This document shows positions 13,338 to 62,853 of a stretch of DNA of 64,000 nt, in pieces. Every line of letters begins with the position of its first letter. Positions within the stretch are counted from its first letter, which is position 1. This DNA comes from a phage, in assembly GCA_024673055.1 (NCBI GenBank), contig GCA_024673055.1_4537.1. One strand, 5' to 3'. Below the pieces are notes generated by a model. That model was not told where the DNA came from and made no database searches. It was given only the letters and a program-made list of their open reading frames with translations. The position numbers and the translations under genes are program-made.

Positions 13338-13344
13338 TTAAACC

Positions 13345-13376
13345 CTCCATAAAAAGAAAGCCCCTTTCGGGGCTTC
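13345..13376 (-). terminator. Rho-independent terminator (minus strand)
   Basis: AAGCCCC-TTTC-GGGGCTT hairpin with a T-run on the minus strand, downstream of the collagen-like fibre gene. Confidence 0.45.
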
Positions 13377-13378
13377 TG

Positions 13379-15403
13379 TTATCGTGTTACAACAACCATG
13401 TCCACGACATTACCCACACCAGGATACGTTAATTGCAAAATTGTTACTGCGTTAGCAGTAGTTGCTATTTCTGTATCATTCAGTGCTCCATAAGACGCAT
13501 CTAGTGTAACCGTGTGTCCCGTTGTATCTTGAATCAAATAAATCATTGCTGAAAACGCTTTAGGCTTTGTAGAGCCAGTGACACCAGGCCATGCTCCAAC
13601 TGTTAAAGCATCGGTTACTGTAACAACATACATATTGGAAGTTCCAGAAGGAGTCCAAGATGCTCCAGAGTTGGCAGTAGTTGTTTCAAGTTCCATGAAA
13701 CCTGCTGTAACTCTAGTTGGTGTTATAGCTTCCGTAGGATCTGATCCTGATATTTCAATCCAGTTCCCATCAGAACGACCATACGTCAAGCCGTCTTGAG
13801 GTGCTTCTGGTATACTAGGAAGAGTTCCTATAAGTGTCCAAGTAGAAGAATCTGTTTTCTTGAACACTGCTCCAGTGGTAGTATTGAAGGCGTAATCATT
13901 GATAACACCGTCTCCTGCGACTGGATTAGTTGTTGCTACAAACCACTGTGCGCCGTCCTTACCGTTGGTCCCATCAGTACCGTTGGTTCCGTTTGTTCCA
14001 GGATCACCCTTATCTCCTTTATCCCCTTTTTCACCTTTGTCGCCTTTAATACTTCCCATGTCAATAAAAGATGCGGAATTGGTGTCTTGATCGTAGGTAT
14101 AGATGTAAAGATTACTAGTGTCTTCAGTTAAATAGGCATCGCCATAGTTATTATAAACAGGGAGAGCTTCACTGTTCGGAACATGACCTTTAGCTGTAAT
14201 TGATGTTCCTCCAAGACTGCCAACATTCATCCATTCCGTAGCATCTTGAACCCAAACATATAAATCATTATTAATTTTATATGCATCACCCACTTCTCCG
14301 GTAGGAGGAAGTTCAGCTTCACTGTTCAGAACCCCGATAATATCTAAGCCTGATCCTGTTGCACCCACTGGTCCTTGTGGACCTAGTTCACCTTGTGGAC
14401 CTCGCTCTCCTTGATCACCCTTGTCTCCTTTTGGACCTTTAAGTGAGGCAATAAAATCTACTTCTGTCCCTTCATTACCAGCATCCAGCCAACTTTGATA
14501 TGCAGATTTCCCTTCATCTCCATCTGTTCCATCAAGACCGTCTTTACCTGCCTCACCTTGTGGACCTTGAGGACCAACAATATTACCCATGTTGACCCAA
14601 GCTGTCCCATTAGAAACATAAAGATTACCATTGATAGAATAAGCTTGACTTACGTTTTCAGAGTTTGGTTGTGGTAAGTTACTTGTAGAAGGCAAATCCC
14701 CACGATAATCAAAACCGTTGGCGTTAACACCAGGTGCTCCCTGTGGCCCTGTAGGACCAACATCACCTTTATCACCTTTTATAGAGGTAAGAAAATCATA
14801 AACAGATCCTGTATTACCATCTGCCAACCATACCTCGTAAGCTGATTTACCTTCTGGCCCAAGAGAAGAAATAAGTTTCCAAACAGAACCATCCCAAGCG
14901 TAGATTACATCACCTACGATATAACCATCCCCTGCAACGTTACCTGTGGATGGTAGTTCACTAGTGCTTGCTAATGATCCTTTAATATTAAGTTGAGCAC
15001 CAGTATCCCCTTTCAAAGAAGCAAGCCATTGTGCTTCTGTTCCAACAAAACCATTATCAAGCGCGATCTGATAAGCCGATTTACCAGCTTCAGGTATTGT
15101 TTCCGACAGATCATCAATCTGTTGCTGCATTGCCGTAAACTTGGCATTGATAATTGCTATATCATCAGCGGTCCCAACACTTTGCCATGCAAGGGAAGAA
15201 ATACCACCTGTGGTGGCTGGCGTAGAGTTTGCTGGAACAACTTTAGGAAAAGTTCCTTTCCATTGGTAATAATTCCCTTCTGCTGCTAACAGCAAAACTT
15301 CACGGGAATTACGTAATGTAAAACCTGCCTCAAAGCTGCGACGTTTTCGATAAGTAGCTTCTACCAGATCGGCTATCGCACTATTAGGTCTTGTTAAATT
15401 CAT
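13379..15403 (-). CDS. Tail fibre protein with collagen-like Gly-X-Y repeats
   Basis: Several G-X-Y runs (GPQGPQGEAGKDGLDGTDG; KGDKGEKGDKGDKGDPGTNGTNGTDG), a thrice-repeated module KSAY..WL..G..G...DF..SLKG, and a conserved fibre N-terminal motif (YQWKGTFPKVVPANSTPATTGG). Confidence 0.7.
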   Translation of the reverse strand: MNLTRPNSAIADLVEATYRKRRSFEAGFTLRNSREVLLLAAEGNYYQWKGTFPKVVPANSTPATTGGISSLAWQSVGTADDIAIINAKFTAMQQQIDDLSETIPEAGKSAYQIALDNGFVGTEAQWLASLKGDTGAQLNIKGSLASTSELPSTGNVAGDGYIVGDVIYAWDGSVWKLISSLGPEGKSAYEVWLADGNTGSVYDFLTSIKGDKGDVGPTGPQGAPGVNANGFDYRGDLPSTSNLPQPNSENVSQAYSINGNLYVSNGTAWVNMGNIVGPQGPQGEAGKDGLDGTDGDEGKSAYQSWLDAGNEGTEVDFIASLKGPKGDKGDQGERGPQGELGPQGPVGATGSGLDIIGVLNSEAELPPTGEVGDAYKINNDLYVWVQDATEWMNVGSLGGTSITAKGHVPNSEALPVYNNYGDAYLTEDTSNLYIYTYDQDTNSASFIDMGSIKGDKGEKGDKGDKGDPGTNGTNGTDGTNGKDGAQWFVATTNPVAGDGVINDYAFNTTTGAVFKKTDSSTWTLIGTLPSIPEAPQDGLTYGRSDGNWIEISGSDPTEAITPTRVTAGFMELETTTANSGASWTPSGTSNMYVVTVTDALTVGAWPGVTGSTKPKAFSAMIYLIQDTTGHTVTLDASYGALNDTEIATTANAVTILQLTYPGVGNVVDMVVVTR

Positions 15404-22846: not shown

Positions 22847-23151
22847 AGTGCGTTCCCATTACTTTTTAAATCACGAGATACAGCTAATTCCCCAAGGTCT
22901 ACAGAACCCGCTGAATGCACAAGTACAGCAGCACTAAGACTAATGGCAGTAATACCTGAGGCAATATCAGCAGGTAGGGAATACGCCCTTTGCGTCTCCT
23001 TATCATAGATAACCTTATACCCACCCAAATCCACACCAACTGAGAAGTAAACAACCTCAGATTGTTTGACTCCAAAGTAACGGGCTACTGCTTGTTTATT
23101 GGTTAAGATTCCGGTTGAACCTTTACCACCTTGGGAGAACATTTCGTTCAC
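22843..23151 (-). CDS. Hypothetical structural protein
   Basis: 102 aa ORF in the late operon. Confidence 0.4.
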   Translation of the reverse strand: MNEMFSQGGKGSTGILTNKQAVARYFGVKQSEVVYFSVGVDLGGYKVIYDKETQRAYSLPADIASGITAISLSAAVLVHSAGSVDLGELAVSRDLKSNGNAL

Positions 23152-50315: not shown

Positions 50316-50394
50316 TGGAGGCGGGAATCGGATTCGAACCGATGATCTCCAGCATATGAAACTGGCGAGGACGACCAGACTCCTCTATCCCGCT
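50316..50394 (-). tRNA. tRNA-Met (anticodon CAT), CCA encoded
   Basis: Hand-folded cloverleaf: T-arm ATCGG-TTCGAAT-CCGAT, anticodon stem CCAGT/GCTGG with loop TTCATAT, D-stem GAGG/CCTC; the 1-72 pair is A-C (unpaired). Confidence 0.6.
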
Positions 50395-50400
50395 ATTATG

Positions 50401-50470
50401 TATCCCGTGCTGGATTCGAACCAGCATCACAATAAGTTGTGGAACTCTTATCCTGTAAGTCTAACGGGAA
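50401..50470 (-). tRNA. tRNA-like element with aberrant anticodon arm (possible pseudo-tRNA)
   Basis: Good T-arm (GCTGG-TTCGAAT-CCAGC) and near-complementary acceptor, but the anticodon region folds only as CACAA-CTTA-TTGTG (4-nt loop). Confidence 0.3.
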
Positions 50471-50472
50471 AC

Positions 50473-50546
50473 TGGTTGTTTCGACAAGAATCGAACTTGT
50501 GTCTCACGATTATCAGTCGTGGGTTCTACCATTGAACTACGAAACA
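50473..50546 (-). tRNA. tRNA-Ile (anticodon GAT), CCA encoded
   Basis: Acceptor TGTTTCG/CGAAACA, D-arm GTTC-AATGGTA-GAAC, anticodon stem CACGA/TCGTG with loop CTGATAA, T-arm ACAAG-TTCGATT-CTTGT. Confidence 0.7.
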
Positions 50547-50552
50547 TTTGAT

Positions 50553-50629
50553 TGGTCGGAATTGCAGGATTCGAACCTGCGACCCTACGCTCCCAAAGCG
50601 TATGCTCTACCAAACTGAGCTAAATTCCG
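50553..50629 (-). tRNA. tRNA-Pro (anticodon TGG), CCA encoded
   Basis: Acceptor CGGAATT/AATTCCG, D-arm GCTC...GAGC, anticodon stem TACGC/GCGTA with loop TTTGGGA, T-arm GCAGG-TTCGAAT-CCTGC. Confidence 0.7.
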
Positions 50630-50634
50630 TTATA

Positions 50635-50710
50635 TGGCTGGTCTGTCTGGATTTGAACCAAACCTACGACAGTCAAAGTGTCGTGTGCTACCGGACTACA
50701 CTACAAACCA
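50635..50710 (-). tRNA. tRNA-Gln (anticodon TTG), CCA encoded
   Basis: Acceptor TGGTTTG/CAGACCA (one GU pair), anticodon stem CGACA/TGTCG with loop CTTTGAC, T-arm TTTGG-TTCAAAT-CCAGA. Confidence 0.65.
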
Positions 50711-50808
50711 ATAAATCATTTAATGAAGGGCAACCAGAAGAGGTGTGAGAGAAGGAGAAAACCATGAGTAAAAGAGAAAGTTTTCTGGCAACCCTTTATT
50801 AAATAATT

Positions 50809-50882
50809 TGGAGCGTTCTACGAGGATCGAACTCGTGCCGCCGACTTGGAAGGACGGAATGCTACCGCTACACCAAGAACGC
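50809..50882 (-). tRNA. tRNA-Gly (anticodon TCC), CCA encoded
   Basis: Acceptor GCGTTCT/AGAACGC, anticodon loop CTTCCAA (stem has one U-U mismatch), T-arm ACGAG-TTCGATC-CTCGT. Confidence 0.6.
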
Positions 50883-50893
50883 CCTACATCTTT

Positions 50894-50923
50894 ACTATAC
50901 TACATTTTACTATTGGTTGTCAA
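50894..50923 (-). promoter_or_regulatory. Sigma70-like promoter (minus strand) for downstream tRNAs
   Basis: On the minus strand AACTATTGACAA, 18 bp, TATAGT, just upstream of tRNA-Gly. Confidence 0.5.
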
Positions 50924-51383
50924 TAGTTTTATTGAGTGGGACAGTGACGAGTATCCCGTTGGGTGACTAGCCCTACGTTCGGTAAGCTAACTTAAAATAA
51001 TACAAAACCAAAGTCAAATATTATTCTTCGTTGCTGTCGATGGGAGAGCCGCTTCTTCTTTTGCCCCATCCAACCCTACTCCGGTCAAGTTTCAGGTAAC
51101 TCTTTTTGTGATCAACACAATACTAAGAACACTGTCTTTCGAGCAGACCTTGTGCACAGGATACGACGATCAATCACAGTGCTCTTAATGTTGTGTTGTG
51201 AATACTAACCTCGGAACTCATTACCGCGTTTTGGCTCGACCTTACTACAGGTTAGTGAATGTCTTTCGTCCGCTTACATTCAATAAGTTTGCTTTCTTCA
51301 CAACGATAAGAACACTTAACAGAAGATAGGTCTGATTGCCTCGGATGATTTCTCAGTAGCCTAAATGTTCTTACCTGTTATGT

Positions 51384-51458
51384 TGGTGCTCCCACTCTGA
51401 ATCGAACAGAGATCCACGGATTACAAAACCGTTGTAATAGCCATTATACTATAGGAGC
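51384..51458 (-). tRNA. tRNA-Thr (anticodon TGT), CCA encoded
   Basis: Acceptor GCTCCTA/TGGGAGC, anticodon loop TTTGTAA (stem with one U-U mismatch), T-arm CTCTG-TTCGATT-CAGAG. Confidence 0.55.
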
Positions 51459-51464
51459 AAAGCT

Positions 51465-51541
51465 GGGACTCGGCAGGATTCGATACCTGCAATTTCAGAA
51501 GCCTCTTGGCGACTGGGGGTTTACCTTAACTCTACAAGTCC
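51465..51541 (-). tRNA. tRNA-like element, non-canonical (8-nt T-loop, no foldable anticodon arm)
   Basis: Acceptor GGACTTG/CGAGTCC and T-arm-like GCAGG-TATCGAAT-CCTGC, but no 5/7/5 anticodon arm could be found by hand. Confidence 0.3.
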
Positions 51542-51548
51542 ATAATTC

Positions 51549-51634
51549 TGGCGATGAGTATAGGATTTGAACCTATATCGTTCTTTCGAACACGGATTAA
51601 CAGTCCGCCGCTTAAACCATTCAGCCAACTCATC
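51549..51634 (-). tRNA. tRNA with anticodon GTT (Asn codons) on a long-variable-arm, Tyr-like body; CCA encoded
   Basis: Perfect acceptor GATGAGT/ACTCATC, anticodon arm GCGGA-CTGTTAA-TCCGT, 15-nt variable arm (GTTC-GAAA-GAAC), T-arm ATAGG-TTCAAAT-CCTAT; lies adjacent to tRNA-Tyr. Confidence 0.5.
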
Positions 51635-51640
51635 TTAATT

Positions 51641-51728
51641 TGGTGGTGAGTGATGGAGTCGAACCACCCGAATCGCAATGATAACAGATTTACAGTCTGC
51701 CCCGCTACCCCTACGGAATTAACTCACC
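51641..51728 (-). tRNA. tRNA-Tyr (anticodon GTA), type II, CCA encoded
   Basis: Acceptor GGTGAGT/ACTCACC, anticodon arm GCAGA-CTGTAAA-TCTGT, long variable arm, T-arm GGTGG-TTCGACT-CCATC. Confidence 0.65.
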
Positions 51729-51858
51729 TAAATACTAATATTTAAATTCTTTTTAAAATAGCCAGTGTTCACACCACTAACTATGAGTTATCGGTAAGAT
51801 GGTGGGGGCCATCTGCCGAAAGTTTACTCTATTAAAGTAAGCTATATTAAAAAGAACT

Positions 51859-51944
51859 TGGCGGTAGATGTAGGACTCGAACCTACATGCCGTTTCCGAC
51901 TACAGTTTAGCAAACTGTCGTGGCTACCATTTCACCAATCTACC
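51859..51944 (-). tRNA. tRNA-Ser (anticodon GCT), type II, CCA encoded
   Basis: Acceptor GGTAGAT/ATCTACC, anticodon arm ACAGT-TTGCTAA-ACTGT, long variable arm, T-arm GTAGG-TTCGAGT-CCTAC. Confidence 0.65.
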
Positions 51945-51948
51945 AATC

Positions 51949-52039
51949 TGGCGGAAGGAGGGAGAGTCGAACTCCCAAGGCTCTTTCAAGCTCGGCGGTT
52001 TTCAAGACCGTTTTCGTCGCCACGTCGATTTGCCCTTCC
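51949..52039 (-). tRNA. tRNA-Ser (anticodon TGA), type II, CCA encoded
   Basis: Acceptor GGAAGGG/TCCTTCC, anticodon loop CTTGAAA, long variable arm, T-arm GGGAG-TTCGACT-CTCCC. Confidence 0.55.
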
Positions 52040-52047
52040 ATACTTAT

Positions 52048-52077
52048 AATCTAACATAAAATAATGTTAGTTGTCAA
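52048..52077 (-). promoter_or_regulatory. Sigma70-like promoter (minus strand) inside the tRNA cluster
   Basis: On the minus strand AACTATTGACAA, 18 bp, TAGATT, upstream of tRNA-Ser(TGA). Confidence 0.45.
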
Positions 52078-52273
52078 TAGTTTTTTAAAACATTTTACCA
52101 TGAATGGTGACTCCACCAACCCCCGTTCTCAACGAACGGTGCTCTTCGAGCATTTATGTCTTCTAATATAACCGTGGCCTTTGTTTATAATGTCTGACAT
52201 ACTTGCCTCATTCTCTGCCACCATGATCAGTAGTGGGTTCAAATCACTTGAGCTAATTCATGTTAAAATGTTC

Positions 52274-52348
52274 TGGTGTCTTTACAAGGAATCGAACCTT
52301 GACTAAGAGTTTAGAAGACTCCTGTGCTATCCATTACACCATAAAGAC
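52274..52348 (-). tRNA. tRNA-Arg (anticodon TCT), CCA encoded
   Basis: Acceptor GTCTTTA/TAAAGAC, anticodon arm GGAGT-CTTCTAA-ACTCT, T-arm CAAGG-TTCGATT-CCTTG. Confidence 0.7.
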
Positions 52349-52350
52349 GT

Positions 52351-52425
52351 TGGTGGCCCTGGCTGGTTTCGATCCAGCTACCTATCGGTTATGAGCCGAC
52401 AGCTCTCCCATTGAGCTACAGGGCC
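52351..52425 (-). tRNA. tRNA with anticodon CAT (Met, or Ile if lysidine-modified), CCA encoded
   Basis: Acceptor GGCCCTG/CAGGGCC, D-arm GCTC-AATGGGA-GAGC, anticodon arm GTCGG-CTCATAA-CCGAT, T-arm GCTGG-ATCGAAA-CCAGC. Confidence 0.65.
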
Positions 52426-53217: not shown

Positions 53218-53403
53218 TCAACTAGGAATAATTTTATCCTTTTTGGTTTCATAACCAGTCCAATCTAAATCCTCCCAGCCTTCATCATCGTCTAACACAT
53301 TGTCATCATCGTAAGATGCAATGTTATAAATAGAACGTGGATTACAAGACATACAATCTTTAATAGGCACATGATGCCATTTGCACGGATTCTCGCTAAT
53401 CAT
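53218..53403 (-). CDS. Hypothetical small protein
   Basis: 61 aa ORF; first gene of the minus-strand block, preceded by a GGAGGTG RBS. Confidence 0.4.
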   Translation of the reverse strand: MISENPCKWHHVPIKDCMSCNPRSIYNIASYDDDNVLDDDEGWEDLDWTGYETKKDKIIPS

Positions 53404-53430
53404 TGCACACCTCCATTCTTGTTAAGATGT

Positions 53431-53632
53431 TCCGTACTGTACTTCATACTGATCTATAGATCAAGTATTATTTATAATAATTTATTATTTTATTTTTAAT
53501 TGATAGAAGTTGATCTGTACGTACCAGTTCTGATACACTGTACCTGTTTGTTAGATCTAATAATTATTTATTATTAATATTTAATAATTATTAATCTAGT
53601 ACAGAGTACAGTACTTGAGTACAGAGTACTAC
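53431..53632. repeat. AT-rich divergent control region with clustered GATC/GTAC palindromes and direct repeats (origin or operator candidate)
   Basis: 14-bp palindrome TGATCTATAGATCA, GTACGTAC, inverted pair GTACTGTAC / GTACAGTAC about 170 bp apart, direct repeat AGTACAGAGTAC x2, long A/T runs; no ORF. Confidence 0.5.
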
Positions 53633-53884
53633 ATCAACAACCTAAAACCTTAACTCGCTGCGCTCGTTAATAGATTTCTAGGGTAGCATACTTCGAACAC
53701 AAAAGTCAAGAGTTTTATTAAAAATTATTTTCTGTGTGCAAAAACCTTGCTTAAACAGGTAGCAATAGTATAGCCTATAACATAAGCTTCATAAGAGGCT
53801 CGTAGAGCAAGTTCACTTACTAGGTAAGGTGATTTATCATCTTATATATAAAAAGTGCGTCAGAGACGCGTTTAGGAGGCTAGA

Positions 53885-54208
53885 ATGAGATTTACAAGAC
53901 AAGAGGTAGTTGTGCTGGACGAAGCAATGACAATGATCGTCTTTTACTATGAGGATATCTTCTGTGCAGCATATCATTTAAATGACATTCAGATTGAATG
54001 GCAGCAGATAGCATTCCTGTTGGACAAGAGTAATCATTTGGATGGTTTTGAGTATTTGGAGTGGGATGGTGCAAAGGAAGTTAAAATTGTAGGGTTAAAT
54101 CACGATCAGATTGTTGACATGCAATGTAAGTTGTGTCATTATCAGTTCTCAAACAAAGTCAAACTCGAAAGGCAATTGGAGGTGGTTAAAGATGATAGCA
54201 CTAATTAG
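53885..54208 (+). CDS. Hypothetical early protein
   Basis: 107 aa ORF after a TAGGAGG RBS; first plus-strand gene after the divergent region. Confidence 0.5.
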   Translation: MRFTRQEVVVLDEAMTMIVFYYEDIFCAAYHLNDIQIEWQQIAFLLDKSNHLDGFEYLEWDGAKEVKIVGLNHDQIVDMQCKLCHYQFSNKVKLERQLEVVKDDSTN

Positions 54209-56179: not shown

Positions 56180-56524
56180 ATGAAAGTTTGGATAGATGAT
56201 ATGCGGAACCCAGCCGACTATGGACAGGAAGATGCAATTTGGTTTAAAACGTCACAAGAAGCTATGGCCTTTCTCAATGATCCTGCTAAACTGTATCGAA
56301 GAGTAACCGAGTGGTCTTTTGACAATGATTTAGGTATGGAGTCAGACCAAGATGGGTATGATGTTTTCCTGCACCTGGAAGAACTTCTGGCGTTTGGTAA
56401 ACCTTGCTTTGGTTCACCTACCATTTTCGTGCATACTTCTAATCCCGCCGCTGGGGATAAATTCATGCTTGCAAAAGAATCCATGCTGCGTTATGGTATT
56501 AAAATGATTCGTGTGCACTACTAA
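56180..56524 (+). CDS. Hypothetical early protein
   Basis: 114 aa ORF after an AAAGGAGG RBS. Confidence 0.5.
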   Translation: MKVWIDDMRNPADYGQEDAIWFKTSQEAMAFLNDPAKLYRRVTEWSFDNDLGMESDQDGYDVFLHLEELLAFGKPCFGSPTIFVHTSNPAAGDKFMLAKESMLRYGIKMIRVHY

Positions 56525-56533
56525 GGAGAAAAC

Positions 56534-56677
56534 ATGCATCATTCGGTTTGGTCGGAACAAGAAGAGGACGAAGGTTACTTTATCTACCGAGAAGAAGAGG
56601 ATTGGCCCGACACAAGTAATGATCTTTTACTTCCAGACACTAGTTTTTTCGAGGATAACTTAAGAGAGGAGGATTAG
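56534..56677 (+). CDS. Hypothetical small highly acidic protein (47 aa)
   Basis: Not in the track (below 60 aa); RBS AAGGAGAAAAC; about 40% Asp/Glu. Confidence 0.35.
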   Translation: MHHSVWSEQEEDEGYFIYREEEDWPDTSNDLLLPDTSFFEDNLREED

Positions 56678-56683
56678 GAAACA

Positions 56684-57040
56684 ATGAGTGGTATTGAAAA
56701 CAACATTTGTTACCAACCTCTTACCTGGATTGGTGAGGGTCATTATGCGCAACGTGTTATCGTCTGTGCTGCGAATAAGTATATTTTGAATAATGGTGAA
56801 GAGTTAATTATTCCTTGTGTTCGACATGCAAATCCTGTACTATATGCACAGTTAAGCGTGTTGAAAGAAGCAGGTGTAATCAACAAAACTTTGTGCACAC
56901 CAGATAATCAAGGCTTTATCGATCAGTATTACAATTGGTGGAGTCGTGCGGATGCTTACATCATCGCGGAAAATGCTGACCAGATCGACCATGAGCGTAA
57001 TGGTCACGACCATGAATTATTTAGCGAGGGATTATACTAA
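56684..57040 (+). CDS. Hypothetical protein
   Basis: 118 aa ORF immediately upstream of the RNA repair cassette. Confidence 0.5.
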   Translation: MSGIENNICYQPLTWIGEGHYAQRVIVCAANKYILNNGEELIIPCVRHANPVLYAQLSVLKEAGVINKTLCTPDNQGFIDQYYNWWSRADAYIIAENADQIDHERNGHDHELFSEGLY

Positions 57041-57591
57041 TGTTTATTACAAGCGATTTGCATTTTATGCATAAACGTATTCGAGAGTTTGCTCCTGAAT
57101 ATCGTCCGTGGGAAGATATGGACCACATGACAGAAGCCTTGATCGAAGCATGGAACAAATGTGCTACTACTCCTGGTGTTAAGATGTGGCATTTGGGCGA
57201 CTTCTGTTTCGGAACTGAAGAAGATACCCGTAAAATTGCTTCCCGTCTCCAAGGAGATATCACCTACTGTGTTGGGAACCATGACTACAGCAAACACCGA
57301 GAAGTGCTTGCAGAGTATGGAGAAGTGGTGTATTATGACGAAGTGAAATATCAGAAGCTGTTCTTCGTCTTAAGCCATTACCCTATGGCCTCCTGGAATA
57401 AACAAGGTCGTGGATCAATCATGCTACACGGGCATTCCCACGGATCTTTCCCTGATGAAGCTTATGGTAAAATGTTAGATGTGGGTTGGGATGCACACGG
57501 AAAAATCTTGCATTTTGATGAGATAATTTCTATGATGAGTAAACGAGATATCGTGACTGTAGACCATCACAAAATAATCAAAGGAGAATAA
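57040..57591 (+). CDS. Calcineurin-like metallophosphoesterase (candidate RNA 3'-end healing phosphatase)
   Basis: Motifs DxH (TSDLHF), GD (HLGDFCFG), GNHD (CVGNHDYS) and GHxH (LHGHSHG) in canonical order. Confidence 0.7.
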   Translation: MFITSDLHFMHKRIREFAPEYRPWEDMDHMTEALIEAWNKCATTPGVKMWHLGDFCFGTEEDTRKIASRLQGDITYCVGNHDYSKHREVLAEYGEVVYYDEVKYQKLFFVLSHYPMASWNKQGRGSIMLHGHSHGSFPDEAYGKMLDVGWDAHGKILHFDEIISMMSKRDIVTVDHHKIIKGE

Positions 57592-57592
57592 T

Positions 57593-58525
57593 GTGGCTAA
57601 ATTTAATTGCGACGATTTGGTTGAAAAAGGTTTAGTTCATAAGAAAACATATAAAGAAGGAGAGTATTCTGGTCTATCTGTTCTTAAGTATAAGAACAAA
57701 GTTTTCTGGGATAACTTATGGAGCATTGATTCTCGTCTTCTAGAATGTCGCGGAATCGTTGTTGATGCTGATGACAATGTTGTTATTTGGCCTTTCACTA
57801 AGATTTTTAATCGTTTTGAGAATGGCACAGATCTACCAGCGGATGAACTTGTAGATGTGGTTCGTAAAGTAAATGGTTTTATGGCCTCTGTAGGTGTATA
57901 TAAAGGTCAACTTATTGTATCGACAACAGGAAGCCTTGAATCAGATTTTGCAAGTATTGCAAAGAATCATATTGTTTCAGAGTGTGATGACATAGAACAT
58001 TTCATCAAATGGACAGAGAGTGCAAAAGCAACTTTCCTTTTTGAAATCTGTGATCCTTCTGATCCGCATATTGTCGAAGAAGAACCAGGTGCATACTTAA
58101 TTGGTGCCAGAATTCAAAATCCTGATGGGACAAGTTTTATGTTACCTGAAGGTGCTCTTGATGGAATTGCTTCTGTCACCAAATTTAAGCGTCCTGAAGT
58201 TCATCCAATGGTTAAGTTTTCAGATGTTGTTGAAATGTCTAAACATTGTAAACACGAAGGGTTTGTAGTTCGTGAAACAAACTATCCGTTCAACTTACTT
58301 TTAAAAATTAAATCACCACACTATCTTACTAAGAAGTTTCTTATGCGCGGTGGAGATAAAAAGTGGGATCTGATTTGGGATAATCCAAAAAATGCCAAAC
58401 AAATGGTTGACGAAGAATATTACGCTTTGTTAGAATGGATTCGAAATAATTTTACGAAGATTCAATGGGCTGCTTTAAATCAGCAAGAGCGACGTGAAAA
58501 AATCGAAAACTTTTTTGGAGGATAA
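57593..58525 (+). CDS. Putative RNA ligase (covalent nucleotidyltransferase superfamily)
   Basis: Motif I-like KVNG (VRKVNGFMASV), motif IV EGFVVR, motif V LLKIKSPHY; flanked by phosphoesterase and polynucleotide kinase genes. Confidence 0.6.
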   Translation: MAKFNCDDLVEKGLVHKKTYKEGEYSGLSVLKYKNKVFWDNLWSIDSRLLECRGIVVDADDNVVIWPFTKIFNRFENGTDLPADELVDVVRKVNGFMASVGVYKGQLIVSTTGSLESDFASIAKNHIVSECDDIEHFIKWTESAKATFLFEICDPSDPHIVEEEPGAYLIGARIQNPDGTSFMLPEGALDGIASVTKFKRPEVHPMVKFSDVVEMSKHCKHEGFVVRETNYPFNLLLKIKSPHYLTKKFLMRGGDKKWDLIWDNPKNAKQMVDEEYYALLEWIRNNFTKIQWAALNQQERREKIENFFGG

Positions 58526-58930
58526 ATGAAACAACTTATCATTTTACGTGGTGTTTCAGGTGCTGGTAAATCTACAGTAGCAGAAATTATTTCTGAAGGT
58601 TATTGGCCTATCTGTGAGGCAGATCAATATCATTACACAGAGAGTGGTGTTTACGATTGGAAGCCAGAAAATGTAGGTAAAGCACACGCATGGTGTCAGG
58701 GTATTGTTCGTGATGCTATGGCATCTAATCTTAACAAGATTATTGTTTCTAATACTTCAACCACAGAGAAAGAACTTAAACCTTATCTAGCTCTTGCTGA
58801 AGAGTTTGGTTATCAAGTTATCTCTTTAGTTGTTGAAAATAGGCACGGTAATGATTCAATTCACGAGGTTCCACAATATATCCGTGATCAGCAAGAGAAA
58901 CGTCTTCGTGGTTCACTTAAACTTCAATAA
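58526..58930 (+). CDS. Polynucleotide 5'-kinase (T4 Pnk kinase-domain-like)
   Basis: P-loop LIILRGVSGAGKST; overall pattern parallels the T4 Pnk kinase domain (IIVSNTST; LAEEFGYQV). Confidence 0.7.
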   Translation: MKQLIILRGVSGAGKSTVAEIISEGYWPICEADQYHYTESGVYDWKPENVGKAHAWCQGIVRDAMASNLNKIIVSNTSTTEKELKPYLALAEEFGYQVISLVVENRHGNDSIHEVPQYIRDQQEKRLRGSLKLQ

Positions 58931-58939
58931 GGAGAAATA

Positions 58940-59266
58940 ATGCAGATTTATACAGATGATCGTAAATATGAGACAATTTTAGATGAAGATACTGGACGAA
59001 TTACCGTTCTCCGTCACGGTGAAGAGTGGCGTGATGAAACGGGAGACAATTATATCTTGTCTCTGATTCATCTTATTGAACAAATGCGTGATGATTACGC
59101 TGAACTGCATTATGAAAATGAGGCTAATAAAGTAAAATTTGAAAATGAATTAGAAGAGAAAGAATCCGAAATGGTATATCTAAAAGAAGAGATCTCCCGT
59201 TTGGAGGAAGAGATTGATGCTCTTCAAGAAGAGATTTACGAACTCAACAACGAACTTAACGCTTAA
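58940..59266 (+). CDS. Hypothetical coiled-coil protein
   Basis: 108 aa; C-terminal heptad-like region (YLKEEISRLEEEIDALQEEIYELNNEL). Confidence 0.5.
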   Translation: MQIYTDDRKYETILDEDTGRITVLRHGEEWRDETGDNYILSLIHLIEQMRDDYAELHYENEANKVKFENELEEKESEMVYLKEEISRLEEEIDALQEEIYELNNELNA

Positions 59267-59275
59267 GGAGGGATT

Positions 59276-59467
59276 ATGAAAAAAGATATCGTTGTTGTTG
59301 GTTGGCTGACTTGCCCTTGTGGTAGTAATGACATAACTGTAAACACAGAGGGTGATAAAAATTATTTATTCTACGGGGATAAAATCACTTGCAATACCTG
59401 CGGACGTGTTGGTATTATAGAAACCGATGATTGTTGTGCTTTTGAATCTTGGGATGAAGAAGAATGA
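59276..59467 (+). CDS. Hypothetical zinc-ribbon protein
   Basis: 63 aa with CPCG...CNTCG Cys pairs. Confidence 0.45.
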   Translation: MKKDIVVVGWLTCPCGSNDITVNTEGDKNYLFYGDKITCNTCGRVGIIETDDCCAFESWDEEE

Positions 59468-59685
59468 GTACTGCATTTTATGTTCGTAGCGGAGACGAGG
59501 ATTTTTTAGCTACTTTTGATGACGGTGATCTTGAAGATATGTATGAAGATATGCTTGACTATGCCAAAGGGCAAGGTTTCACAAGCATTGATTACATGTT
59601 GGCAACATCTACAACGTTACTCGACGCAGATTTGGATGAAGTGTGTAACAGATTGAAAATTTCAGTTTTTAAATGGGAGGACTAA
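59464..59685 (+). CDS. Hypothetical acidic protein
   Basis: 73 aa, Asp/Glu-rich. Confidence 0.45.
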   Translation: MSTAFYVRSGDEDFLATFDDGDLEDMYEDMLDYAKGQGFTSIDYMLATSTTLLDADLDEVCNRLKISVFKWED

Positions 59686-60800
59686 TGCAACAAACAAATC
59701 AAACGCTGTATGGTAAAGATTCAAAAGGAAAACTTAAACAGTGGACAGTGTATACAGATGGTGCAGTTGTTACTGTAGCTCATGGAAGAGTAGGTGGAAA
59801 AATCACAGAAAAATCTTATACAGCAGAAGCAAAAAACATTGGTCGCTCCAATGAAACAACACCGGAAGAACAAGCTGAACTTGAAGCTTTTGCCAAATGG
59901 ACAAAACAGTTAAAGAATGGTTATTATAAAACAAAAGAAGAAGCTGAAAACCATGTTCCTTCCACACCAATGAAATGCCAGGATTATAAAGATTATCCTG
60001 AAAGGGTTGTGTTCCCTGGTTATGCACAATACAAACTGAACGGGTTACGTTCTATGATTAACATGAAAGGAGAGTGTTTATCAAAAGCTGGGGAAGTGTA
60101 TAACCTGCCACCTCATTGGAAAGGTATTCCAAACTTTATTAGTGAAGTTGTTGGTCATCCTCTTGATGGTGAAGTGTTTGCTGGGTTAGGTGTCCTTAGT
60201 CTGCAACAAATTAACAGCGCCTGGAAGAAGCATAATGCAAATACACCTTTGCTGAATTATTACGTATACGATATTCCAGTTCCAGATCTACCGTTTGAAA
60301 AACGTGTTGATGTTCTTGCTGCTCTTAAGGCAGTAGTTGAAGATTATGGTCTTAATGAGCTTATTTGTGTAGTTCATACAGAGTATATTGAAAACCAAGA
60401 ACAGTTTGATGCTTTCTATGAAAAAGCTTTACTTGAGAAAGCTGAAGGTGTAGTATATCGTAATGCTCACGGAGTTTACGAATTTGATAAACGTTCTTAT
60501 GACGTTATTAAACGTAAGCCTCGCCATACCCTTGAAGTTAAAGTAACAAATTCAAAAAGTGATAAAAATGGCGATGGAGTGTTGACAGGTGAGATGGAAA
60601 ATGGTAAAGTAGTCGAATTCTTAATGCGTAAAGATGCTCATGAGACTATCAATTATCGTAAAGCAGAGAATGCTTCTACCTTGATTAATCAGTTTGTTGA
60701 AATAGAGTATGAAGAATTTTCAGATGAAGGTATTCCAACAAAACCTGTTGGTGTTCGTATTCGAGAAATGATCCCAGGCACTTGGGAACCAGCAGAATAA
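59685..60800 (+). CDS. ATP-dependent DNA ligase
   Basis: Motif I KLNGLR, motif III PLDGEVFAG, motif IIIa YVYDI, motif IV EGVVYR, motif V VIKRKP; ATG at 59685 after GGGAGGA. Confidence 0.75.
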   Translation: MQQTNQTLYGKDSKGKLKQWTVYTDGAVVTVAHGRVGGKITEKSYTAEAKNIGRSNETTPEEQAELEAFAKWTKQLKNGYYKTKEEAENHVPSTPMKCQDYKDYPERVVFPGYAQYKLNGLRSMINMKGECLSKAGEVYNLPPHWKGIPNFISEVVGHPLDGEVFAGLGVLSLQQINSAWKKHNANTPLLNYYVYDIPVPDLPFEKRVDVLAALKAVVEDYGLNELICVVHTEYIENQEQFDAFYEKALLEKAEGVVYRNAHGVYEFDKRSYDVIKRKPRHTLEVKVTNSKSDKNGDGVLTGEMENGKVVEFLMRKDAHETINYRKAENASTLINQFVEIEYEEFSDEGIPTKPVGVRIREMIPGTWEPAE

Positions 60801-60809
60801 GGAGGAAAA

Positions 60810-61004
60810 ATGTTCTTAGCCATTTTAATCGTTTTCAGTGTGCTTTCTTTTTATTGTATGAATGCTTCGGAAAGCTTTCCTAAGAATTCAAAGAAAAGAA
60901 CCGTATGTATTGCGATTGATTCATGTATGTCTGGAGTTGGGTATGCGGTAGTTTCTTGTTTCTTAGCTTATCATTGTGCAAAATACCTGGAGGCATTTTT
61001 ATGA
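60810..61004 (+). CDS. Hypothetical small membrane protein
   Basis: 64 aa; N-terminal hydrophobic helix (FLAILIVFSVLSFY). Confidence 0.4.
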   Translation: MFLAILIVFSVLSFYCMNASESFPKNSKKRTVCIAIDSCMSGVGYAVVSCFLAYHCAKYLEAFL

Positions 61005-61183
61005 TAATTTTAGCAACAATTCTTATGATGTTGATAGCCATTGCTATTGTAATTCTGGCATCTTTTCCGGCGGATAAATGGTATTTCAATATTCCACGTA
61101 TGCTTGTTTTCGGTTTCGCAGGAATTTACATGGGTGAGACTGTAGTAAATATTAGCAACTTTCTAGAAAGCTATTTTAAATAA
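61001..61183 (+). CDS. Hypothetical small membrane protein (two TM helices)
   Basis: ATG at 61001 after CCTGGAGG; hydrophobic segments IILATILMMLIAIAIVILA and LVFGFAGIYMG. Confidence 0.4.
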   Translation: MIILATILMMLIAIAIVILASFPADKWYFNIPRMLVFGFAGIYMGETVVNISNFLESYFK

Positions 61184-61192
61184 GGAGTTATA

Positions 61193-61918
61193 ATGATCGA
61201 GAATTTTTTTAAAGATATTAAATTCGATACTGAATTTTTCAAAAATGCAGCAAAGCACGTAATTGATTGGAATGCCAAAGCACGAGGTGGTGAACAACCT
61301 GAATTCACTCAAGAGTTATTTATGTCCCAAATCGGGTTCGTTCGTGAAGAGCTTAAAGAGTATGAAACAGCCGCGAAAGTAAACGATCATGTAGAACTCT
61401 TGGATGCAGCAGCGGATATTTTTGTAGTATCTAGTTATCTTACTTACATGTTCTTTGGTGAAGAACATACGCTGAATTTCTTGGACTATGCTGTAGGCGA
61501 TGTTTTTACTCCAACTGTGTATACCGATTTCGATGCTTTGGAACAAACATTTACAGAGCCAGTTCAAATGGCGCTAATGGCTGCTGGTATTATGCGTATG
61601 TCTCGTGACACTCTGATCCGTTCAAAATATCCAGAAAAGAAAGTTATTAAAGAGGTATTGAAAAGTAATGATTCCAAGTATCCAACTAAACAACAGTTGC
61701 TGAAAACTTGGAAAACTTCAGATATCGATTCAGCCATTGCACAAGAATGCGCTGCAATTGAAGAACGAAATGCCAATCGTCCAGAAGGGGCATACACTGG
61801 TGTTCATGCCGTTTATAATGAAAAACAGAAAGTGTATGTGTTCTTTGATGATAAAGGTAAGATCATGAAGTGGTCAGGTTTCATTAAACCTAATATCGCA
61901 GGTATTATTAACAAGTAA
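61193..61918 (+). CDS. Hypothetical protein, possibly MazG-like NTP pyrophosphohydrolase
   Basis: Glu-rich helical motif (VREELKEYETAAKVNDHVELLDAAADIF) resembling the MazG EExxE...D core. Weak inference. Confidence 0.35.
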   Translation: MIENFFKDIKFDTEFFKNAAKHVIDWNAKARGGEQPEFTQELFMSQIGFVREELKEYETAAKVNDHVELLDAAADIFVVSSYLTYMFFGEEHTLNFLDYAVGDVFTPTVYTDFDALEQTFTEPVQMALMAAGIMRMSRDTLIRSKYPEKKVIKEVLKSNDSKYPTKQQLLKTWKTSDIDSAIAQECAAIEERNANRPEGAYTGVHAVYNEKQKVYVFFDDKGKIMKWSGFIKPNIAGIINK

Positions 61919-61974
61919 TGTTGTAAGCAGCCCTTTACGGGCGGTAATGTGAGATGTATTAAATAGGAGGAAAC

Positions 61975-62853
61975 ATGTTTGTAAAATCTTTTAAATCTGC
62001 TCTGCCTATGGTTGTTGGTGACGATGCTTCTGTAGCATCCCTTAACAGCATTACAGATATTCCTCTGGAATTTGTAACAGCAGAAGGCTCCCAGTCACAC
62101 ACTATCGGTCTTGTTCGTTTCGAAGATGACTCTAAATTTGTAAAAGAGTTTTCAGATCTTGAACTGCTTAATGTAGGTCAATCTGTGAAGAAGGTAGATA
62201 AAAAGAAAGTTAAACGTATTCTGAATGAACGTCTAGAAGAAATGCGTCAGGACATGGAGAGCGAAGGTAAAGAGTTTTATGTCGATAAAGAAGTAGTCAA
62301 AGCAATGAAGGAAGATATTGAATTTGCACTATTGCCTGAAACAGAACCTGAAGATTTCTTTAACTATGTTGTCTTGGATAAAACTACGAATCTTCTTTAT
62401 GTTCTTAATGGAAGTAAAAAGGTCGCAGAAGAGATTACTTCTTTCCTCCGTTCCGTTCTGGGGACTTTCCCTTCGGTAGGTTTTAGTGTGCACGAAGAAG
62501 CTATTGTAAAAGGTTTTGGTGAATTGCTGGAGAATCATGAAGCAGATCGTATTACTCTCGGAAATTATATCAAAATGGAGGATAGCGAGGGCGTTGTTGT
62601 TTGGAGTAAAGAATCCCTATACGAGTCTAAAGCTGTCGAACTAAAAGAGGATGGTAAAGATGTGGTTGCAATCGGTCTTGAATATGACGGTGTTGTAGAT
62701 TTTGTAGTGGATAAAGAGTTTAAACTTTCTAAACTACGTTTTCCGAAATATTTTGCAGACGAAGAAGGTAGTATTGAAGCTTCAGTCCTTCTGTGCTTCA
62801 ATGAGATTCGAGGTCTGATGGAAGATTTAACCAAAGCAACAATCCTTAAATAA
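61975..62853 (+). CDS. Hypothetical protein
   Basis: 292 aa ORF after an AGGAGGAAAC RBS. Confidence 0.5.
   Translation: MFVKSFKSALPMVVGDDASVASLNSITDIPLEFVTAEGSQSHTIGLVRFEDDSKFVKEFSDLELLNVGQSVKKVDKKKVKRILNERLEEMRQDMESEGKEFYVDKEVVKAMKEDIEFALLPETEPEDFFNYVVLDKTTNLLYVLNGSKKVAEEITSFLRSVLGTFPSVGFSVHEEAIVKGFGELLENHEADRITLGNYIKMEDSEGVVVWSKESLYESKAVELKEDGKDVVAIGLEYDGVVDFVVDKEFKLSKLRFPKYFADEEGSIEASVLLCFNEIRGLMEDLTKATILK

Follow-up and report, generated by a model that had tools for sequence, protein, structure and literature searches.

The spacer at positions 53404-53884 of a 64,000-nucleotide stretch of phage DNA (contig GCA_024673055.1_4537.1 of GenBank assembly GCA_024673055.1; the whole stretch is called the window hereafter) lies between two divergently transcribed gene blocks and is crowded with A/T-only runs and short palindromes. 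Is it a replication origin or a master operator, as an original prediction made from the sequence had proposed, or a control region of another kind? The spacer and its flanks are 99.9% identical to the genome of Escherichia phage Mt1B1_P17 (MT496970.1), and >60 further phAPEC8-like phages match them at ≥95%; the window is thus from a member of the genus Phapecoctavirus, subfamily Stephanstirmvirinae. Positions in the window correspond to those of the Mt1B1_P17 record minus 43706. According to the open reading frame (ORF) map and the annotation of relatives, 53404-53884 is exactly the spacer between a leftward gene of 61 amino acids (aa) and a rightward gene of 107 aa. Our analysis indicates that this spacer is probably the early-transcription hub of Phapecoctavirus, i.e. 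a conserved region of four interleaved promoters read by the host sigma70 RNA polymerase.

Promoters were searched on both strands using a position-weight matrix calibrated on the whole genome, for which the 99.9th percentile is 8.7 bits, and four sites were identified in the spacer, namely P_L1, P_R1, P_L2, and P_R2 (10.2, 11.6, 11.9, and 8.7 bits, respectively). P_L1, the proximal leftward promoter of the sigma70 type (53436..53464, minus strand; 99.95th percentile), comprises a -35 hexamer TTGATC (53464..53459), a 17-nt spacer, and a -10 hexamer TACAGT (53441..53436). Its predicted start at ~53429 lies in the leader of the 61-aa gene (53404..53433, minus strand), in which the ribosome-binding site (RBS) GGAGG is the complement of 53410-53414 and the start codon follows at 53403..53401. 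P_R1, the distal rightward promoter (53510..53539, plus strand; 99.97th percentile), has TTGATC at 53510-53515, an 18-nt spacer ending in TGa, and TACACT at 53534-53539, with a predicted start at ~53546. P_L2, a distal leftward promoter of the extended -10 type (53680..53709, minus strand; 99.98th percentile), has TTGACT (53709..53704), an 18-nt spacer ending in TGC (53688..53686), and TACCCT (53685..53680), with a predicted start at ~53673. P_R2, the proximal rightward promoter (53812..53840, plus strand), was also detected by a consensus scan and consists of TTCACT, a 17-nt spacer, and TATCAT; transcription would start at ~53847, and the 5' leader is predicted to fold into a hairpin (GCGTC-AGA-GACGC, 53857-53869, plus strand), followed by the RBS AGGAGG (53874-53879) and the ATG at 53885.

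The -35 hexamers of P_L1 and P_R1 are 45 bp apart, and 36 of these base pairs form an A/T-only tract (tract 1, 53466..53501) that is the second-longest A/T-only run of the 151-kb genome. We infer that tract 1 is back-to-back UP-element DNA, so that it would act as the UP element of both promoters. Another A/T-only tract (tract 3, 53713..53731, 19 nt), the sixth-longest of the genome, adjoins the -35 hexamer of P_L2 on the upstream side. In this arrangement, each flanking operon would be served by one proximal and one distal promoter. The distal promoters P_R1 and P_L2 face each other, and their predicted starts are ~127 bp apart here vs 90-98 bp in the five other lineages compared below; because the two are interleaved, their transcripts would overlap over the same distances, which would give scope for transcriptional interference or antisense control.

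The promoter map was compared across six lineages: the genus of the window, phiWec188 (with phiWec179), phi92, Klebsiella phage phi1_175008, a genome from IMG/VR resembling that Klebsiella phage, and Citrobacter phage Tr1. The left half of the spacer cannot be aligned between the window and the five other lineages, yet the order P_L1, A/T run, P_R1, hairpin, P_L2 (pointing back towards the hairpin), and P_R2 is common to all six, in the same orientation. All sister lineages have an A/T-only run of 17-35 nt between P_L1 and P_R1, and the gap between the two -35 hexamers in these relatives is 32-57 bp. P_L2 is present in 6/6 lineages as TTGACW-17/18-TGnTACCCT, in which the spacer varies and the hexamers are fixed. 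The counterparts of P_R2 are TTGACT-17-TACCAT in Tr1 and TTGACA-17-TATCAT in the Klebsiella phage, and the stem of its leader hairpin shows compensatory changes (GCTC/GAGC in phi92 and Tr1, and GCGTT/GACGC in phiWec188). The spacer accordingly combines the features of a promoter region, i.e. hexamers above background on both strands, positions kept in relatives, and A/T-rich DNA at about -40 to -60. At the equivalent junction of rV5, bidirectional promoters had been expected by the authors of the genome paper, who found none (PMC3606486).

Variation within the genus was assessed in an alignment of eleven Phapecoctavirus spacers. GATCAA (53459-53464), TACACT (53534-53539), GTTAGATCT, and the whole block 53644-53712 are invariant, as are GGTAAGGTGATTTATCATCTT in P_R2 and the sequence from there up to the start codon. 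The promoter hexamers are either invariant or drift nearer to the consensus: the -10 hexamer of P_L1 is TACAAT instead of TACAGT in BI-EHEC, and the -35 hexamer of P_R1 is TTGATA instead of TTGATC in phAPEC8, a change that destroys the GATC. The A/T tracts vary in length by insertions and deletions (+12 in BI-EHEC and -5 in Schickermooser). The number of tandem copies of the octamer AAACCTTA, which lies next to the hairpin of P_L2 (53640-53653), ranges from one to three within Phapecoctavirus; its transcript-strand form, TAAGGTTT, is similar to a Shine-Dalgarno sequence.

How do the motifs that first drew attention to the spacer fit this map? All were found by direct reading of the window: the perfect 14-bp palindrome TGATCTATAGATCA (53450-53463), GTACGTAC (53517), the inverted pair GTACTGTAC and GTACAGTAC (53434 and 53606, 172 bp apart), two copies of AGTACAGAGTAC (53598 and 53618), and the long A/T-only runs, two of which, of 36 nt (53466-53501) and 38 nt (53558-53595), exceed all others in the genome. 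The copies of AGTACAGAGTAC had been called tandem; both are present, but they recur with a 20-bp period and an 8-nt spacer between them and are not strictly tandem. The description of the region as packed with GATC and GTAC was partly confirmed: the GTAC cluster and the A/T tracts are extreme, but GATC density and the palindrome are not. GTAC is depleted in the genome, with 143 copies against 534 expected from composition and 457 expected under a Markov model, and several further 4-bp palindromes are avoided as well. Ten copies nevertheless lie within ~200 bp at 53434-53629, where 0.46 would be expected (Poisson probability 7e-11, a value that is overstated because several copies came from local duplication), and among the 150 kb scanned this cluster is the only 250-bp interval with ≥4 GTAC. 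GATC occurs four times in the spacer against 1.9 expected (P = 0.13), and an enrichment was rejected; a GATC cluster of the Dam/SeqA type, as in oriC and in the P1 origin or pac site, is not present. The window contains four perfect 14-bp palindromes against 4.7 in Markov simulations, and the palindrome was likewise rejected as a signal, given this chance frequency and a left arm that is mutated in three congeners (phAPEC8, UP17, and Schickermooser).

The same motifs coincide to a large extent with promoter parts. The -10 hexamer of P_L1 lies in GTACTGTAC, and its -35 hexamer is the right, invariant arm of the 14-bp palindrome, which is thus the -35 hexamer plus promoter spacer of P_L1 and not a conserved dyad. 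The spacer of P_R1 holds GTACGTAC, and the GTAC at 53540 abuts its -10 hexamer. The TTGATC hexamers at -35 of P_L1 and P_R1 account for two of the four GATCs. The best-supported reading, judged from sequence comparison, is that most of the listed motifs represent either promoter hexamers or a dispensable duplication. The idea of a multi-operator control region therefore holds in so far as the spacer appears to be a conserved multi-promoter hub, but the motifs cited for it do not behave as recognition sites of a protein or methylase: among congeners the palindrome arm is broken, a repeat unit is deleted, and GTACs are mutated, and the cluster is missing from sister genera.

The duplication occupies the middle of the spacer. 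A/T-only tract 2 (53558-53595, 38 nt), the longest A/T-only run in the genome, contains TTAATAATTATTAA at 53581-53594 and forms the core of an imperfect dyad of ~88 bp (53532..53621, centred at 53575/53576), the arms of which align with a score of 17 against -1.8 ± 3.6 for shuffled sequences, beyond all 2000 shuffles. The left arm of this dyad includes the -10 hexamer of P_R1, and the core and right arm consist of tract 2 and the GTAC array (53598..53629), in which five GTACs are found and AGTACAGAGTAC is present twice, with a 20-bp period around AGTACT. The array can also be read as a weak leftward promoter, P_L3 (minus strand; -35 TTGATG at 53637..53632 and -10 TACTGT at 53613..53608; 7.3 bits). 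Tract 2 and the dyad were found only in Phapecoctavirus proper and are absent from phiWec188, phi92, Klebsiella phage phi1_175008, and Tr1, and the array is also specific to the genus, the GTAC cluster being missing from sister genera. As folded DNA, the array is not significantly structured (z = -0.7 to -1.1); for the 271-nt leader, the fold is more stable than those of shuffled sequences (z = -3.5), mainly via the A/T dyad. We read the segment 53558-53630 as a putative genus-specific inverted-plus-tandem duplication of promoter-proximal DNA, with a multiplied GTAC unit and under weak constraint.

Congeners differ considerably in this segment. In most of them, the first unit of the array is AGTACGGAGTAC, unlike the perfect repeat of the window, and in dw-ec 15 nt of the array (one repeat unit) are deleted, including the -10 hexamer of P_L3. 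In BI-EHEC, seven of the eight alignable GTACs of the spacer, including all of those in the array, have become GTAT or ATAC, and the GTAC tetranucleotide is therefore dispensable. Outside the spacer, 11 of 24 homologous GTACs are changed in this phage (48 kb compared), and 19 GTAC sites remain in 50 kb (OL505078.1, 30001-80000). Such a pattern points either to selection exerted by a GTAC-specific restriction system or to the deamination of methylated cytosines. Tract 2 and the GTAC array are probably not a methylation or operator code.

A second component of the spacer is conserved far more strictly than these motifs. Just downstream of P_L2, on the non-template strand, lies a hairpin (53650..53670, minus strand; TTAAC-GAGC-GCA-GCGA-GTTAA) with the core CGAGCGCAGCGAG (53666..53654), which begins ~3-8 nt after the predicted start and is invariant among the eleven congeners. 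In the core, tandem G.A pairs flank a GCG(N)AGC mini-hairpin; the predicted fold of the whole 21-nt hairpin is (((((..((...))..))))). Together, promoter and hairpin form a module of ~60 bp, TTGACW-17/18-TGn-TACCCTA-N(12-16)-CGAGCG(N1-2)AGCGAG, which occurs exactly three times in Mt1B1_P17: at 22.98 kb (22960-23015, plus strand), at 97.36 kb (minus strand; 53654-53709 of the window), and at 135.13 kb (plus strand). Three copies are also present in each of three IMG/VR genomes, one phi92-like, one Klebsiella-phage-like, and one phiWec-like. As far as our searches show, this promoter-hairpin module has not been described before.

The conserved 13-14-mer pairs as C-G, G.A, A.G, G-C, and C-G around a loop G(N1-2)A, and all 29 distinct instances fit the consensus GCGNAGC or GCGNNAGC, with the loops GCA, GAA, GGA, GTA, GATA, GGGA, GAAA, and GCGA. 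The stem extension covaries (TTAA/TTAA, C/G, TA/TA, and TCCTAT/ATAGGA; mean 2.07 bp), to a degree that none of 10,000 permutations reached. That only the N positions vary within the core, that loop length varies, and that the stem extension covaries all support a hairpin rather than a binding site in duplex DNA. The contexts of the three copies are kept in four genera: type 1 lies at the divergent junction, type 2 inside a co-directional operon, and type 3 (135.13 kb) is oriented against all genes around it and is followed by no plausible ORF. The type-3 copy is therefore not there to express a gene. A BLAST search with it (135.1 kb) returned 133 phage records, and both this count and the breakdown by organism equal those for homologues of the right-hand gene. 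Two further hairpins follow this copy, with no obvious ORF or terminator. Two functions can be envisaged for the module hairpin, either as an RNA element at the 5' end of the transcript or as a signal for initiation on single-stranded DNA.

Certain IMG/VR contigs related to HTVC023P-type pelagiphages carry a similar string, TACCCTA-N10-CGAGCG(A/G/C)AGCGAG, just upstream of the large terminase gene. In this unrelated group of marine podoviruses the stem extension covaries and the loop N differs among near-identical contigs. The hairpin thus recurs, but the TACCCTA part may be a coincidence; about 16 chance matches to the combination are expected in such a collection by our own estimate, and it was not used as support.

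Several points weigh against the reading of the spacer as a promoter hub. The literature yielded no transcriptome, transcription start site (TSS), or promoter study of the subfamily, and since TSS mapping was found for none of its members, the promoters of the hub are all predictions. The local excess of GTAC, ~20-fold in a genome that otherwise avoids this tetranucleotide, is not fully covered by promoter hexamers and duplication, and the 88-bp dyad around tract 2 is left without a function. That the module hairpin is so strictly conserved in sequence, that it matches a hairpin near the origins of ColE1-type plasmids (see below), and that the third copy keeps its antisense orientation all suggest that P_L2 does more than make mRNA.

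The first alternative, which we regard as tentative and somewhat unlikely, takes the module hairpin as an RNA element: a 5' leader structure that stabilizes the transcript or loads an antitermination or processing factor, in the manner of nut or put sites, for read-through of the untranslated 2-kb tRNA cluster and the long operons. It is in favour of this function that the hairpin begins ~3-9 nt from the predicted start in every copy, that its stem extension covaries, that the copy in the window heads an operon with 10-11 tRNA genes, and that P_R2 has a leader hairpin too. A simple stabilizer, however, needs no invariant sequence with two G.A mismatches, and the ordinary hairpin of P_R2 drifts freely; GAUA and triloops are not favoured RNA loops, and the antisense third copy has no operon to antiterminate. 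Rfam searches at gathering and permissive thresholds returned tRNAs and noise only, with no match to the hairpin. As in lambda nutL/nutR (boxA plus boxB) and HK022 put, a conserved hairpin closely follows early promoters and recurs several times in the genome. Unlike in those systems, no boxA-like element was noticed in the leader by eye (no pattern search was made), no N- or Q-like protein was identified, the small proteins flanking the spacer having no Pfam match and no wider search for such factors having been made, and one copy is antisense.

The other alternative that builds on the module, which we consider rather unlikely, is a transcription-primed origin. According to this explanation, transcription from P_L2 would form an R-loop, the hairpin on the displaced strand would serve as a primosome signal (for host PriA, as in a primosome assembly site (pas) of the phiX174 type, or for the phage primase-helicase), the A/T-only tract would unwind, and the three modules would be three origins; such a function could coexist with the promoter hub. 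Part of the evidence comes from plasmids. The 13-mer CGAGCGCAGCGAG is identical, 13/13, to a sequence of pMB1/pBR322-type replicons that is present in thousands of ColE1-like plasmids. In ColE1, CGAGCGTAGCGAG (1331-1343) matches in 12 of 13 positions and is located 143 nt beyond the RNA/DNA-switch motif TATGGAAAAACGCC, on the displaced strand, which has the RNA II sense. The counterpart in CloDF13, GGAGCGTAGCGAC, is found at +121 (complement, around 9788); its loop N differs, and its closing pair is flipped from C-G to G-C. Within this plasmid family, the loop N is C in pMB1 and T in ColE1 and CloDF13. The variation of the loop N and the compensatory flip therefore support the tandem-G.A mini-hairpin in the plasmids too. 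The intergenic spacer between genes F and G of phiX174, where its primosome assembly site is located, carries CAAGCGAAGCGCG and AGCGAAGCG.

Further points are in favour: DNA polymerase I (Pol I) extension in ColE1 is said to expose an n'-pas/ssiA that recruits PriA (PMC3167613), PriA acts on R-loops (PMC5778457), and the phage loops fit the rule for DNA mini-hairpins (PMC13037366) better than the GNRA rule for RNA. The third module copy opposes all neighbouring genes in four genera, the longest A/T-only run of the genome lies downstream of P_L2, and two of the copies are near minima of the cumulative GC skew (97.4 vs 97.5 kb and 23.0 vs 20.2 kb). Against an origin of this kind, the similarity to ColE1 does not extend beyond the 13-mer into the flanks, and the neighbouring AAGCGG stem-loops are absent. 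The ColE1 hairpin is presumed to lie within the limits of the pBR322/ColE1 pas. Moreover, a compact and maximally stable hairpin could arise convergently, and the phage has its own primase-helicase (1553-3331 of the window) and polymerase. Both P_R1 and P_L2 would read into 53558-53595, yet this tract is missing from sister genera. The GC skew was set aside as origin evidence because it is fully confounded with transcription polarity: wherever the skew switches, at four places that include the local minimum at 97.5 kb (the spacer), the global minimum at 20.2 kb, and the maximum at 131.85 kb, gene orientation changes as well. The same confounding has been noted in rV5 (PMC3606486). That the three modules of Stephanstirmvirinae represent a previously undescribed kind of phage origin, in which a promoter R-loop exposes a non-template hairpin that loads PriA or a primase-helicase, is in our judgement doubtful. 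The proposal of an origin survives only via the promoter-hairpin module, an element that was not among the palindromes listed for it.

Could the GTAC repeats and the 88-bp dyad instead be an operator array, to which an early phage protein binds and thereby switches the divergent and convergent promoters? The uniqueness of the GTAC cluster in the genome, the recurrence of 12-mers at a 20-bp period (approximately two helical turns), the centring of the dyad on tract 2, the overlap or proximity of the repeats to promoter elements, and the enrichment of AGTAY motifs in the spacers of phi92 and the Klebsiella phage would all be consistent with this. We consider it improbable, given the replacement of seven of the eight aligned GTACs in BI-EHEC, the loss of a unit in dw-ec, the irregular spacing of the GTACs (4, 5, 7, and 8 nt), and the absence of the array and dyad from sister genera that keep the promoters. 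In addition, a Pfam scan of the six small proteins flanking the spacer identified no domain of any kind, including DNA-binding domains.

A methylation-controlled switch, in which promoter or origin activity would depend on methylation, either at Dam sites (GATC) or by a phage methylase with GTAC as its target, is very improbable. It can draw on the use of TTGATC as the -35 hexamer of both back-to-back promoters, on the enrichment of AGATC/AGATCT in the spacers of phiWec188 and Tr1, and on one GATC block that is conserved across genera: GTTAGATCT (53550..53558), a short block between P_R1 and the hairpin, holds the sole GATC of the spacer that is kept outside the genus; the block is found in the window, phi92, and Tr1, and phiWec188 has a similar one with AGATCT. 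GATC is not enriched, however, and three of the four GATCs are missing from one congener or another, once giving a better -35 hexamer; GTAC sites are freely lost in BI-EHEC. The phage had been credited with a DNA methyltransferase of its own, but a Pfam scan of 30 window ORFs identified no such domain, and none is annotated in the 99.9%-identical record. These phages are reported to be exceptionally sensitive to restriction-modification systems and appear to have no effective protection (PMC8594841), and the genomic depletion of GTAC is therefore best read as site avoidance and not as a sign of protective methylation.

A classical iteron/DnaA-type origin, or a packaging site or genome terminus, can be set aside as extremely improbable: the A/T richness, which might provide an unwinding element, and the repeats would suit it, as would the start of the nieznany record inside the spacer, but the repeats are not conserved iterons, the skew minimum is only local, a scan of the spacer gave no DnaA box (TTATCCACA) at up to one mismatch, with a single relaxed match, and no integration host factor (IHF) consensus, and direct terminal repeats (DTRs) and a more iteron-like block are located elsewhere. 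The terminus or pac site was rejected on the DTRs: the ends of the Mt1B1_P17 record (1-328 and 150875-151202) are an exact 328-bp DTR, ~54 kb from the spacer on the right and 97 kb on the left, and the DTR of the related phage BME3 (342 bp) is located in the equivalent, all-minus-strand block, which is different from the spacer. Approximately 1.2 kb of non-coding DNA is found inside the left end of Mt1B1_P17. The iteron-like block is a 1.3-kb non-coding region at 12.5-13.9 kb of Mt1B1_P17 (12450-13900), which includes the lowest-GC 100-300-bp intervals of the genome (13.3-13.65 kb). A Fur-box-like dyad, GAGAATGATTATCATTTAC, is present in each of its three tandem 29-bp units, and a 72-bp repeat occurs twice; the block is a more classical candidate for an iteron-type origin, or an iron-responsive control region.

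Public records of the spacer differ in ways that may be technical. The nieznany record (MN850598.1) begins inside it, which looks like an assembly break, and EP57 (OR544956.1) lacks 38 bp, from the RBS to the -10 hexamer of P_L1, and 20 bp further to the right. A/T-rich repeats probably break or distort short-read assemblies, and the public sequences of the spacer therefore need care. A 55-bp 'repeat_region' is annotated in nepoznato, tuntematon, and anhysbys, with no explanation by the authors.

Between P_L2 and P_R2, the window contains a weak promoter-like site (53747..53776, plus strand; TTGCTT ... TAGCCT/TATAGC; 5.5 bits). The homologous site of phiWec188 scores 9.3 bits (TTGTGT-16-TGcTATAGT) and serves an extra gene of 70 aa; this gene, annotated in both phiWec188 and phiWec179, lies there between the core promoter and P_R2 and is missing from the window. 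Where phiWec-type relatives have this gene, the window keeps a decayed promoter and ~60 bp of leftover sequence.

The spacer is one of only two divergent junctions in the whole Mt1B1_P17 genome, the other being located at 20.2 kb. The left operon, headed by the 61-aa gene, consists of small genes and 10-11 tRNA genes, followed by the structural module, and the right operon, headed by the 107-aa gene, consists of small genes followed by RNA and DNA repair genes. Ten tRNA genes (two for Met and one each for Ile, Pro, Gln, Gly, Thr, Asn, Ser, and Arg) were identified at 50316-52425 (minus strand); an eleventh match, at 51644-51728, was obtained with Rfam only and is annotated as a pseudo-tRNA in the reference record. 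In phage nepoznato, a gene for an HNH endonuclease replaces the tRNA-Gln gene of this cluster. The right arm of the window (56180-62853) encodes a cREC_REC (cyclic-phosphate receiver) domain protein, a metallophosphoesterase, a T4 Rnl1-like RNA ligase, an ATP-dependent DNA ligase, a MazG/PRA-PH-like protein, and RdgC, a gene run that looks like a tRNA-repair and anti-defence cassette.

Phages of the phAPEC8 and phi92 types are widely isolated and are included in therapy cocktails, and the start of their transcription or replication has so far been undescribed. With the present analysis, the main control region of these phages has a promoter map that is concrete and can be tested, and a conspicuous cluster of motifs is explained as promoter parts plus a dispensable duplication. 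GTAC sites appear to be a restriction liability for these phages, and one lineage (BI-EHEC) is already shedding them. In the ~60-bp module, which is present three times per genome and throughout the subfamily, a host-type promoter is coupled with a hairpin that ColE1-family origins have as well. Should this module turn out to be an origin, or to act as a new leader signal, it would provide a handle for engineering these phages and extend DNA mini-hairpin and pas-type biology to large virulent phages.

Several parts of the proposed hub have counterparts in known systems. In strong early promoters of T-odd and T-even phages, divergent sigma70 promoters stand back-to-back and have an A/T-rich UP tract in common, with UP elements of the rrnB P1 type. 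The pair P_L1/P_R1 likewise has 17-18-bp spacing, opposite strands, and a gap that is 32-57 bp in relatives, i.e. two UP-element lengths; unlike in a simple divergent pair, a second, interleaved pair is present here and the A/T tracts are the extremes of the genome, and its start sites, as well as any contacts with the C-terminal domain of the RNA polymerase alpha subunit, are putative. The promoters pR and pL of coliphage 186 form a face-to-face switch at a distance of ~62 bp. P_R1 and P_L2 resemble them in that two strong promoters converge over a short overlap (~127 bp in the window; 90-98 bp in its five sister lineages); in contrast to 186, the phage is virulent, without a repressor or lysogeny module, and interference would follow from the geometry only. 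Among transcription-primed origins, oriF and oriG of T4 consist of a promoter and a downstream unwinding element, and the primary origin of T7 of promoters followed by an A/T-rich stretch. Similarly, P_R1 reaches tract 2 at ~+12 and P_L2 at ~+78, and there are several candidate sites per genome, but tract 2 is genus-specific and the sequences are unrelated to those of T4 and T7.

The closest parallels of the module are found in systems that initiate DNA synthesis on single strands. Sites of the n'-pas/ssiA class are ~55-70 nt long, with AAGCGG-containing stem-loops. As in the n'-pas region of the ColE1/pMB1-type plasmids, the phage motif lies on the strand displaced by a primer RNA or transcript, and a hairpin is predicted on this non-template strand; a full-length relationship was not found, only the 13-mer being common. 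The plasmid hairpin follows the RNA/DNA switch by 121-143 nt and is itself followed by more AAGCGG stem-loops, whereas the phage hairpin follows the -10 hexamer by 12-16 nt. The sequences GCGNAGC and GCGNNAGC form an extraordinarily stable DNA mini-hairpin that has been reported at the complementary-strand origins of G4, St-1, and alpha3, in RSF1010 ssiA, and in the early promoters of N4, which are read by the virion RNA polymerase (PMC13037366). The phage core fits this consensus, with variation only at N and loops of 3 or 4 nt; unlike the mini-hairpins reviewed there, it is flanked by invariant tandem G.A pairs and is coupled to a predicted sigma70 promoter of the extended -10 type.

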